From the IMG/VR virus record IMGVR_UViG_3300009785_000018: a DNA stretch of 64,000 bases; one strand, 5' to 3'. Shown piece by piece: positions 7,811 through 39,813 of the stretch. Source of the stretch: an uncultured virus (IMG/VR IMGVR_UViG_3300009785_000018) (Duplodnaviria; Heunggongvirae; Uroviricota; Caudoviricetes). The position numbers and the translations under genes were made by a program. Below the pieces are notes generated by a model, which was given only the letters and a program-made list of their open reading frames with translations, was not told the DNA's origin and ran no database searches. The stretch's first letter is position 1. Each line of letters begins with the position of its first letter.

Positions 7811-7999
7811 TTAGCACGATTGAATCTCTAGCCTATGCTCGTGTTGAACCTGAATGTATTCTTTAAGAGACTCCAAGGTTTTAAACCTACCAAGCTTTTC
7901 TTCGTCGTCCATTGCCTCAACAACAATGTCGCCACCTTCTTCGTAGTGTTCGTAGCAATATGAATTTATTTTTTCGATTGTCATTATAGTTCCTCCCAT
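7811..7999 (-). CDS. hypothetical protein
   Basis: 62-aa ORF (HYEEGGDIVVE motif). Confidence 0.65.
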   Translation of the reverse strand: MGGTIMTIEKINSYCYEHYEEGGDIVVEAMDDEEKLGRFKTLESLKEYIQVQHEHRLEIQSC

Positions 8000-8325
8000 C
8001 CAGCTGATTTACACATTAGAGTAGTCTTTTCTCCGTCGTTGTCAATTACTTTTATCACGTCGCCCACGCTAGTTGAGTGAAAGGTTTTTTTGTCAGAACA
8101 GTTCTCCCAGAGAGCCAAAAGGATTTTTTCATGCACCTTATCCAACATTTCAATTGGCGCATTTGTAACGTGAAACAAAAGCTCAGCTAACTTGGCGGGA
8201 GCATTTGGATAGTCGATATGTTCTGCATTAAGTCGAGCAGAGAAAACGCATTTGCGGGCGACCTCCCATTTCTGGATAAAAGGTTCGTCTTCGGAGCGGT
8301 GTAGTGATAGTTGTATTGTTTTCAT
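7984..8325 (-). CDS. conserved phage hypothetical protein
   Basis: C-terminal STSVGDVI...C...GW motif; TTGACT-N16-CATAAT-8 nt-ATG. Confidence 0.75.
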   Translation of the reverse strand: MKTIQLSLHRSEDEPFIQKWEVARKCVFSARLNAEHIDYPNAPAKLAELLFHVTNAPIEMLDKVHEKILLALWENCSDKKTFHSTSVGDVIKVIDNDGEKTTLMCKSAGWEEL

Positions 8326-8392
8326 TGTCCTGCATTATGAGTGGTCGTTTAGCGAAGTCAATACTTTTTTTCAAAAAAAAGAATAAAATTTA

Positions 8393-8461
8393 TGGTGGAG
8401 GTGGGTGGAGTTGAACCACCGTGTTCAAACTAATAGCTTGAGTCGAAACCCTTACACCCCC
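8393..8461 (-). ncRNA. mini-tmRNA: tRNA-like domain only, no mRNA-like domain
   Basis: GGGGGTG-TAAGGGTTTCGAC-TCAAGCT ATT AGTTTGA-ACAC-GGTGG TTCAACT CCACC-CACCTCC-ACCA: acceptor stem with G3.U70, discriminator A, encoded CCA, tmRNA-type D-loop GGxTTCGAC without D-stem, canonical T-arm, no anticodon arm. Confidence 0.85.
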
Positions 8462-8488
8462 CTATAAATTATTCTATATTTGTGTAAT

Positions 8489-8520
8489 GTCGCCCCGCCC
8501 TAACCACAAGGCGAGACGAC
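8489..8520 (-). other. 13-bp hairpin between the 8523 gene and the mini-tmRNA
   Basis: GTCGTCTCGCCTT-GTGGTT-AGGGCGGGGCGAC; no U-tract after it. Confidence 0.6.
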
Positions 8521-8522
8521 TG

Positions 8523-8825
8523 CTATACACATGAACACACTTCAAGTTTTGAAATTTTTTGTAGCAAGTCGTTAGCACTATCGGCATTAAGAAATCCTAC
8601 GACATCATCTGTAATGTCTGGGTGTTGAGCTATGTGTCCAGTATCATCCATCAACGCAAGCTCTAAGCCATACGAAGAATCATGTGAGACTACTGAAGCA
8701 CCATAGCCGTTTTCGAAGTTGAAAATCTTTTGCCAACCGAAAAGCTCTGGACGTTCTATAAGTTCCATCGTGTGTGGCTCGGTTGATGATACCTTGAATA
8801 GTTGTTGCATGGTTTCGTTGTTCAT
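8523..8825 (-). CDS. conserved phage hypothetical protein
   Basis: FENGYGASVV...YGLELA...DDVVGFL motif common in phages. Confidence 0.8.
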   Translation of the reverse strand: MNNETMQQLFKVSSTEPHTMELIERPELFGWQKIFNFENGYGASVVSHDSSYGLELALMDDTGHIAQHPDITDDVVGFLNADSANDLLQKISKLEVCSCV

Positions 8826-39048: not shown

Positions 39049-39813
39049 TTAAATATTTAGCAACTTAAAATAATAATCATAATATTCTGTAATATTTTCT
39101 ATATTATCTCTTGTCTCGTCGTTTTCTATTAAATTATTAAATATGTCTTTGTCAGCACACCATTTTCTACCAGTCCAAAACTCAAAACCAGGAAATGAGC
39201 TTTTATATTTGGCGTGACTTTCATAACTTGGACCTATATAAAGATATTTTAGATTTAAATCTTTGGCCAATGAGATTTCTCTGTATGTAGAGAATCTGCC
39301 TAAACCCAGAGTTGGATCAGCGTAATCCCAGCAAAATTGGTGAGCTATAAGACTTCTACCAACTATTTCAGTAGTGGTAAAGGCTACATCTCCATATAGT
39401 ATATAGATATCACTGTTAGTATTATAAACATTATAAAAATCTTCTTCTGATAAAATATGAGTAAATTTTTTGTATGTTACATATTTTAAATAAATTTTGT
39501 ATAATTTTTCAAAATCAGGGGTTTTTGTAACCTCTATTTTAATATTGCTTTTTTCTACCCTTTTCCAGCATTTAGTCTCTTTATTTACTTTTTTATGCTT
39601 GCTTATATCTAATCTAGCCTGACGACTCTGATACCAAATTATTTTATTATCTTTTAAGAAATTAGTATCTTGGTTATACCATATGTTTGAAGGACACCAA
39701 CCCTTGTCTAAAGCTTCTTGCTCTTCACCCTTTTCAACTGTTGCACTTACTAAACAATGTAAAAAATCATAATCTGCTTGCTTGCCACAAATATGATCAA
39801 AATATAATTCCAT
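39049..39813 (-). CDS. aminoacyl-tRNA-protein transferase (ATE1/Bpt family)
   Basis: L..GW...R..R; Y.KY...K; WDY....LG.FS...EI..AK...LKYLYIG.....YK. Confidence 0.75.
   Translation of the reverse strand: MELYFDHICGKQADYDFLHCLVSATVEKGEEQEALDKGWCPSNIWYNQDTNFLKDNKIIWYQSRQARLDISKHKKVNKETKCWKRVEKSNIKIEVTKTPDFEKLYKIYLKYVTYKKFTHILSEEDFYNVYNTNSDIYILYGDVAFTTTEIVGRSLIAHQFCWDYADPTLGLGRFSTYREISLAKDLNLKYLYIGPSYESHAKYKSSFPGFEFWTGRKWCADKDIFNNLIENDETRDNIENITEYYDYYFKLLNI

Follow-up and report, generated by a model that had tools for sequence, protein, structure and literature searches.

A 69-nt phage gene predicted to encode only the tRNA-like domain of tmRNA

The DNA that we analyzed, referred to here as the window, is a 64,000-nt stretch from an uncultured virus (IMG/VR IMGVR_UViG_3300009785_000018) that by its gene content is part of a large phage, with PHROGs matches to a DNA polymerase, a primase, a DnaB-like helicase, a UvsX-like recombinase, and a class I ribonucleotide reductase. 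The first 20 kb contain many small minus-strand ORFs and 30 of the 44 TTGAC-type promoter-like sites that we found on the minus strand of the window. A repeated promoter-like motif (an A run, TTGAC, 16 to 18 nt, and a TAnnnT-like element) lies 5' of many small minus-strand genes between 500 and 20000, where a pattern count returned 30 minus-strand sites versus 3 on the plus strand. The layout of these first 20 kb suggests an early region read by host polymerase.

Within this region lies a 69-nt gene on the minus strand, read from 8461 to 8393, which the original prediction had described as a phage tmRNA consisting of the tRNA-like domain (TLD) only (Table 1). The coordinates and every element quoted in that prediction proved correct, with only the minus strand left unstated. 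We observed that folding of the minus strand gives a 7-bp acceptor stem containing a G3·U70 pair, a D region, a hairpin, a connector, a T arm, and a terminal A-CCA. The folding energy of the 69 nt was -23.4 kcal/mol (z of -1.93), with 7 of 200 shuffled sequences being equally stable, and the plus strand of 8393-8461 was unremarkable in folding (z of 0.29). By itself, this folding energy is modest evidence, and the match to the Rfam tmRNA model RF00023 is strong evidence, with a score of 49.4 bits (gathering threshold of 47) and an E value of 1.7e-16 over the whole window. The alignment used both ends of the model and skipped 326 model positions, and the 17-nt hairpin is a stump of helix 2a with a cap. 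The 69-nt gene thus reads as a phage gene for the TLD of tmRNA only, and it is real, conserved, and probably functional.

Table 1. Features at and around the 69-nt RNA gene in the window
Feature	Coordinates	Strand	Basis
TLD-only (tag-less) tmRNA gene, 69 nt including encoded CCA	8393..8461	-	Rfam RF00023, 49.4 bits; fold
Acceptor stem, 5' strand GGGGGTG (G3)	8455..8461	-	fold, sequence
Unpaired D region, 13 nt, TAAGGGTTTCGAC, ending in UUCGAC	8442..8454	-	Rfam alignment
17-nt hairpin replacing pseudoknots and tag frame	8425..8441	-	fold; family covariation
Connector ACAC	8421..8424	-	sequence
T arm GGTGG-TTCAACT-CCACC, 5 bp and 7-nt loop	8404..8420	-	Rfam alignment, fold
Acceptor stem, 3' strand CACCTCC (U70)	8397..8403	-	fold, sequence
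Discriminator A (A73)	8396	-	fold, sequence
CCA, encoded	8393..8395	-	fold, sequence
A/U-rich trailer with T run, can pair with A/U-rich leader in precursor	8372..8392	-	fold
Sigma-70-type promoter-like site of next gene (7984-8325), downstream cassette boundary	8334..8361	-	promoter-like pattern
14-bp GC-rich hairpin, ending 26 nt upstream of RNA	8488..8519	-	-24.3 kcal/mol, z -6.45
100-aa ORF, function unknown, phrog_4074, upstream of RNA	8523..8825	-	ORF list, PHROGs
TTGACA hexamer	8890-8885	-	sequence

ARAGORN called three tRNAs in the window (Glu, Lys, and Arg) and did not call the gene at 8393-8461. The expectation that standard finders could miss this gene therefore holds for ARAGORN but not for Rfam with Infernal, which finds it above threshold. 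A search with a model built from 14 such RNAs, including that of the window, detected a single TLD copy in the window. As predicted, the gene order is not permuted: the 5' part precedes the 3' part, as is standard, and the permuted two-piece tmRNA model RF04321 had no match in the window, so that we rejected a permuted two-piece tmRNA on both grounds. A standard full-length tmRNA was rejected due to the skipped RF00023 positions, the lack of an ARAGORN call, and the missing tag frame and pseudoknot ring. The sequence and structure features that define the class of the RNA from mycobacteriophage DS6A were all observed in the window RNA, including a tmRNA-type acceptor stem, G3·U70, A73, the CCA position, a D region ending in UCGAC, a connector of the form xAC, a canonical T arm, and a helix 2a shut by a short hairpin with no tag frame.

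The hairpin can also be drawn as the 5-bp stem and 7-nt loop (C, U, AUU, A) of a D-armless tRNA that would read Asn codons as Ala. Although the window sequence, taken alone, matches this drawing in its loop length and at positions U33 and A37, the loop has 8 nt in the closest relative, and none of the 26 short distinct CCA-encoding sequences among the matches listed has a 7-nt loop, with most having 4 or 5 nt. Since Rfam also prefers tmRNA and ARAGORN calls no tRNA here, we find a D-armless tRNA hardly credible.

No terminator was called at the hairpin upstream of the TLD in the window. This hairpin is kept in relatives with or without a TLD (30 metagenome loci). In many empty alleles it is followed by a T-rich run and is terminator-like, but the run is weak in TLD alleles, which would fit read-through from upstream into the TLD; the 100-aa ORF upstream is a probable cotranscription partner of the RNA. 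We observed the TLD between a strong hairpin and the next promoter-like site in the window and in two related records (L044 and G003), and of the 57 distinct sequences upstream of the TLD in the viral family described below, 23 fold at z ≤ -2 (mononucleotide shuffles). Both observations would suit a cis-acting processing signal, where a tRNA-like element directs an RNase P cut of an early transcript and the hairpin protects the upstream mRNA. We consider such a signal quite improbable, as the alanine identity and SmpB motifs are kept though processing needs neither, and many family members have tRNA genes as neighbors, with no mRNA that would require cutting.

The original prediction had proposed a search for covarying homologs in related phages, and these were found. 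A strict pattern returned 78 loci in IMG/VR, representing 60 distinct sequences including that of the window, and a relaxed pattern returned at least 120 loci, each with flanks of 300 bases. Together, these form a family set of 193 loci (73 of the 78 strict and 120 relaxed, overlapping), which are loci rather than independent genomes. The viral TLD family in IMG/VR comprises at least 143 distinct sequences of 64 to 88 nt; among the matches listed (n = 143), 28 have 74 nt or fewer, 8 have 75 to 77 nt, and 107 have 78 nt or more. None of the family among the matches listed contained the 3' motif of a full tmRNA or an upstream tmRNA 5' end, the latter within the limits of the 300-base flanks. In two viral loci (L022 and L041), ARAGORN called long tmRNA genes that overlap the TLD.

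Pairing was counted in unfiltered sequences, since the filtered set itself demanded pairing. Pairs 1 to 3 of the T stem, which were free in the pattern, were each formed in 143 of 143 sequences among the matches listed, and pairs 1 to 5 of the hairpin were formed in 141, 139, 131, 130, and 122 of these 143, in a wide range of pair types. In 14 sequences chosen by hand and aligned, 238 of 238 cells were paired and both partners had changed in 11 of 17 pairs; relatedness inflates such covariation counts, although the mean identity is only 67%. None of 500 shuffles reached this level of pairing, and slid controls reached 46 to 59%. When positions 3 and 70 were freed in the pattern, we detected no locus without U70 versus at least 120 with U70. 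G3 was present in 114 of the 120 U70 loci among the matches listed, and the other six were one mis-registered match and five members of a divergent group with C3. From these sequence comparisons, we conclude that selection acts on the TLD structure. The divergent C3·U70 TLD-like group (L503, L517, L563, L569, and L586) also has a longer D region, and its members may be uncharged or a different RNA.

Comparison with close relatives addressed the history of the gene at this site. One locus (L075) is identical to the window over 4 kb. Another (L044) is syntenic with the window at 77 to 88% identity and has a TLD in the same place, with 67 of 69 aligned bases kept and one inserted loop base; both substitutions preserve their pair. 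The two are identical at 188 of 270 bases in the neighboring gene, but at only 44 of its 90 third codon positions. The TLD is the sole RF00023 match in the 141-kb record that contains this relative (77% complete), and no tmRNA match was detected in the nearest record, G001 (18% complete). With the upstream hairpin as an anchor, we collected 30 metagenome loci of relatives, of which 6 have less than 400 nt downstream and some are possibly re-assemblies of one population. The 19 anchored loci that also have the same downstream gene were taken as orthologous sites: 14 were empty, 2 contained only a second conserved element (element B, described below), 2 contained a TLD, and 1 contained both. The TLD was thus present at 3 and absent at 16 of the 19 orthologous sites, with a full tmRNA at none of them. 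One relative (L081/G003) has no TLD at this site, but a diverged 63-nt TLD of its own lies about 3 kb from it, flanked by a hairpin and a promoter-like site.

The site comparison and the sole RF00023 match in the 141-kb record indicate that the TLD gene belongs to a variable region as an accessory module and is not the stump of a tmRNA recently deleted here, and its absence from 16 of 19 orthologous sites indicates that it is dispensable at this position. A nonfunctional remnant, whether from a recent deletion in a full tmRNA or as a piece left after integration at ssrA, would account for the patchy occurrence among relatives. The original prediction had raised such a remnant in connection with close relatives that carry a full tmRNA, and none of the 30 anchored loci (6 with less than 400 nt downstream) has one at the site. 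Furthermore, the 141-kb relative contains no RF00023 match besides the TLD, the TLD is conserved above the level of neighboring third codon positions, and both ends are in order with a covarying hairpin between them, whereas only one end would be left by integration. The remnant reading is largely refuted, and we regard it as very improbable.

Element B is a conserved, noncoding stretch of about 100 nt that occurs in the same intergenic site with or without a TLD. We observed it at L044:2085-2180 (+) and in L081, L437, L438, L440, L457, and L465, and the window lacks it at this site. In the fold of five copies, both partners have changed in 3 of 24 pairs, and no match to Rfam was detected at E ≤ 5 in the 4 loci scanned. 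Part of the element may loosely resemble the last two domains of group II introns. We rejected element B as a separate coding piece of the tmRNA, since its copies have no tag-like frame in common, it is not in the window, and it occurs without a TLD.

Several relatives are contigs with names starting with TARA, which suggests a marine phage. The first 20 bases of the window TLD, with up to one mismatch, were found in none of 301 genomes sampled from the phylum of a Kiritimatiella-labelled genome (G011), and among 101 distinct full-length tmRNAs, none had ends matching the window TLD.

In E. coli tmRNA, the positions that contact SmpB are described as A15, U17, G19, and A334 (PMC8363625). The Rfam alignment, from which we infer the equivalence in numbering, indicates that the counterparts of U17, G19, and A334 are kept in the 69-nt RNA and that A15 is replaced by U. 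A U at this position is common in the family, with UUU in the three positions before YGAC in 41 of 90 distinct sequences. The connector of distinct viral TLDs among the matches listed (n = 143) is GGAC in 123, GCAC in 10, and ACAC in 2, so that the ACAC of the window RNA is a departure from the usual GGAC; that of DS6A is GCAC. Due to the rare connector and the U at the A15 position, the SmpB affinity of the window RNA could be lower. We did not detect SmpB in the window at E ≤ 1 (tblastn with 17 SmpB queries), and genes for SmpB, RF-1-family proteins, and Pth were each found in 0 of 5 TLD-carrying phage records, 3 of which are complete.

A TLD-only tmRNA is as a kind already published, from one phage (DS6A) and from organelles. 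The novelty implied by the original prediction, which had named only a mitochondrial precedent, is lost with DS6A, for which the same form is reported in PMC4131195 and PMC11915505; the former lists "Mycobacterium phage DS6A (TLD only)" as tmID 11587. We found no account in the open-access literature of a TLD-only tmRNA as a common phage gene. According to PMC4131195, a molecule like the DS6A TLD, chargeable or not, strongly inhibits tmRNA, perhaps via SmpB titration, a function that the original prediction had also put forward, and PMC11915505 describes the DS6A form ("Phage__Mycobacterium.9") as inhibiting endogenous tmRNA in E. coli. The DS6A TLD (JN698994.1, 28478-28560) is 83 nt long and scored 43.2 bits with RF00023. 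Both RNAs come from phages and have their ends in standard order, with G3·U70, A73, UCGAC ahead of a capped helix 2a, an xCAC connector, and no tag frame. DS6A has a longer arm with an inner hairpin, as in the commoner class of 78 to 88 nt (107 of 143 among the matches listed), whereas the 69-nt window RNA has a plain hairpin and falls in the class of 64 to 74 nt (28 of 143). The window RNA also encodes CCA and has an ACAC connector, in contrast to the CUA end and GCAC connector of DS6A, and it lies in the variable region of a phage unrelated to DS6A. Mao et al. 2009 is reportedly the source cited for tmRNA inhibition by a DS6A-like TLD.

Standard ssrA RNA (RF00023) and the window RNA share both termini, the D region, the T arm, and the alanine determinants, but the window RNA lacks pseudoknots, resume codon, tag, and stop, with no smpB in the window or in the 5 carrier records. 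Among 97,179 curated tmRNA sequences, PMC11915505 counts 9 as "standard, no CDS" and 79 as being from phages, and it describes CDS-less plastid tmRNA genes of about 65 bp in Mallomonadaceae, CDS-less mitochondrial tmRNA, and the possible inability of mitochondrial tmRNA to release the ribosome. These organellar RNAs resemble the window RNA as TLDs of similar size without a tag frame. Each is the only tmRNA of its organelle and works with imported SmpB, whereas the window RNA is a phage accessory, presumably beside a full host tmRNA. The Thermus TLD construct crystallized with SmpB is described as 63 nt, consisting of 25 nt of the 5' part and 34 nt of the 3' part joined by UUCG (PMC3929946). 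This engineered TLD is near-identical to the window RNA in design and size, but the latter is natural and under selection. Together with SmpB, engineered TLD is described as transferring Ala on ribosomes in the absence of a template (PMC2481249).

Considering these comparisons, we favor, with a probability of about 0.55, the reading that the gene encodes a compact accessory RNA of the DS6A "TLD only" class that competes with host tmRNA and adds Ala without a tag. The RNA would be transcribed in the promoter-rich small-gene region, probably by read-through past the upstream hairpin, and by analogy with tmRNA, host RNase P and 3' trimming would free the 69-nt form ending in CCA. Host AlaRS would charge it via G3·U70 and A73, both of which are in the sequence, and the charged RNA would bind EF-Tu and SmpB of the host, the phage bringing no SmpB of its own. 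The RNA would then compete with host tmRNA for SmpB and empty A sites. In a stalled ribosome, it would accept the chain and add Ala but give neither a tag nor a stop codon, so that release of the ribosome would depend on a backup factor of the host or on the next tmRNA to arrive. The net effect would be less ssrA tagging and proteolysis during infection.

A pure SmpB sponge would have no need of a strict G3·U70, so that its strict conservation suggests a charged RNA that enters ribosomes and does more than soak up SmpB. The original prediction had offered rescue of stalled ribosomes by Ala addition as one possible function. The Ala-extension part of this idea stays alive due to the strict keeping of G3·U70, but release by the RNA alone does not, as the RNA has no reading frame and no stop codon and none of the 5 carrier records encodes SmpB, an RF-1-family protein, or Pth.

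The job under selection could instead be catalytic, with TLD·SmpB adding one or several template-free alanines to stalled chains (tag-free extension, or Ala-tailing on the 70S ribosome), the broken mRNA being displaced and the ribosome passed to host release or recycling factors. Such a function would agree with the strictly kept U70 and G3, with the template-free poly-alanine synthesis by TLD and SmpB in vitro that is cited in PMC2481249 and PMC3929946, and with the persistence of CDS-less tmRNAs in some plastids and in mitochondria, organelles in which an inhibitor would have little purpose (PMC11915505). We consider it possible but unlikely, because the release route is not encoded (RF-1-family and Pth each in 0 of 5 carrier records) and the DS6A RNA is reported as an inhibitor (PMC4131195, PMC11915505).

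A role outside trans-translation could take the form of a decoy for defense nucleases that cut tRNA or tmRNA or of a donor of aminoacyl groups to a phage transferase. Carrier loci are frequently situated in tRNA clusters, with tRNA genes within 2 kb of the TLD in 14 of 60 loci scanned, and the window encodes an ATE_C-family aminoacyl-tRNA:protein transferase (39049-39813, minus strand; PF04377, 28.1 bits with a cut-off of 25). We judge either role improbable. SmpB binding is the purpose of the tmRNA-specific motifs in the D region and connector, which would be unneeded here, and ATE_C was found in only 1 of the 5 carrier records (a close relative, G002) and in none of the 3 complete ones. The chemistry of the ATE_C family involves Arg, Leu, or Asp/Glu instead of Ala, and the phage itself encodes a tRNA-Arg. 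This tRNA, tRNA-Arg(UCU), is encoded in the window, and the transferase could alter N-degron tagging in the host.

Taken singly, the window locus is an ordinary member of its class. It adds a clean comparison of gain and absence among close relatives, a natural connector variant, and a handy 69-nt test of whether a tag-less tmRNA in the cell acts by blocking tagging or by adding alanine. Since ARAGORN misses TLD-only genes and at least 143 distinct viral sequences exist, it may be routine for phages to interfere with trans-translation, and such interference may be under-annotated. A bolder and, in our judgment, doubtful reading is that phage TLD-only RNAs represent a widespread third mode of handling stalled ribosomes, where RNAs charged with Ala and acting on host SmpB replace the ssrA tag with template-free alanines. 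If this were so, phages would re-route host quality control by a natural counterpart of the in vitro TLD poly-alanine reaction, with more than 100 variants available for study.

We also scanned GTDB genomes with the TLD pattern and obtained 99 matches, of which 38 were kept after filtering and 61 were dropped. The 3' motif of a full tmRNA was present in 55 of the 99 matches, and 54 had a tmRNA 5' end further upstream; smpB lay beside the match at 15 dropped loci and at 0 of the 38 kept ones. The 3' motifs, upstream 5' ends, and smpB neighbors indicate that most GTDB matches are the 3' ends of normal ssrA genes. Many full-length tmRNAs have an internal G run and a GAC motif that make their last 86 to 95 nt look like a TLD-only gene (for example, L102, L132 from Streptomyces, and L144). 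Such ends are a trap for pattern searches and account for over half of the 99 matches. Some dropped matches (for example, L119, L120, L129, and L157) resemble real TLD-only genes that fail the filter.

Among the 38 kept loci, 6 lie in arrays of 13 to 24 tRNA genes. These TLD-only genes are 66 to 83 nt long (L103, L135, L153, and the cyanobacterial L111, L125, and L160), and the cyanobacterial copies have one arm sequence in common, with L111 on a 7.9-Mb contig. At least one kept locus represents a phage contig from a single-cell genome (L130, the same as L038). Saccharibacteria-labelled assemblies contain TLD-only genes of 65 to 81 nt (L092, L106, L118, L129, and L136).

A blastn search against cultured phages returned only 3'-end matches, and both that we examined belong to permuted full tmRNAs. 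Stenotrophomonas phage BUCTxx99 (OR529408.1; L079:1470-1672) and Ruegeria phage RpAliso (OR257569.1; L082:1474-1695) each encode an unannotated permuted two-piece tmRNA, with RF04321 scores of 100.1 and 129.5 bits, respectively. In RpAliso, two YrlA-like matches below the cut-off lie directly behind the permuted tmRNA.
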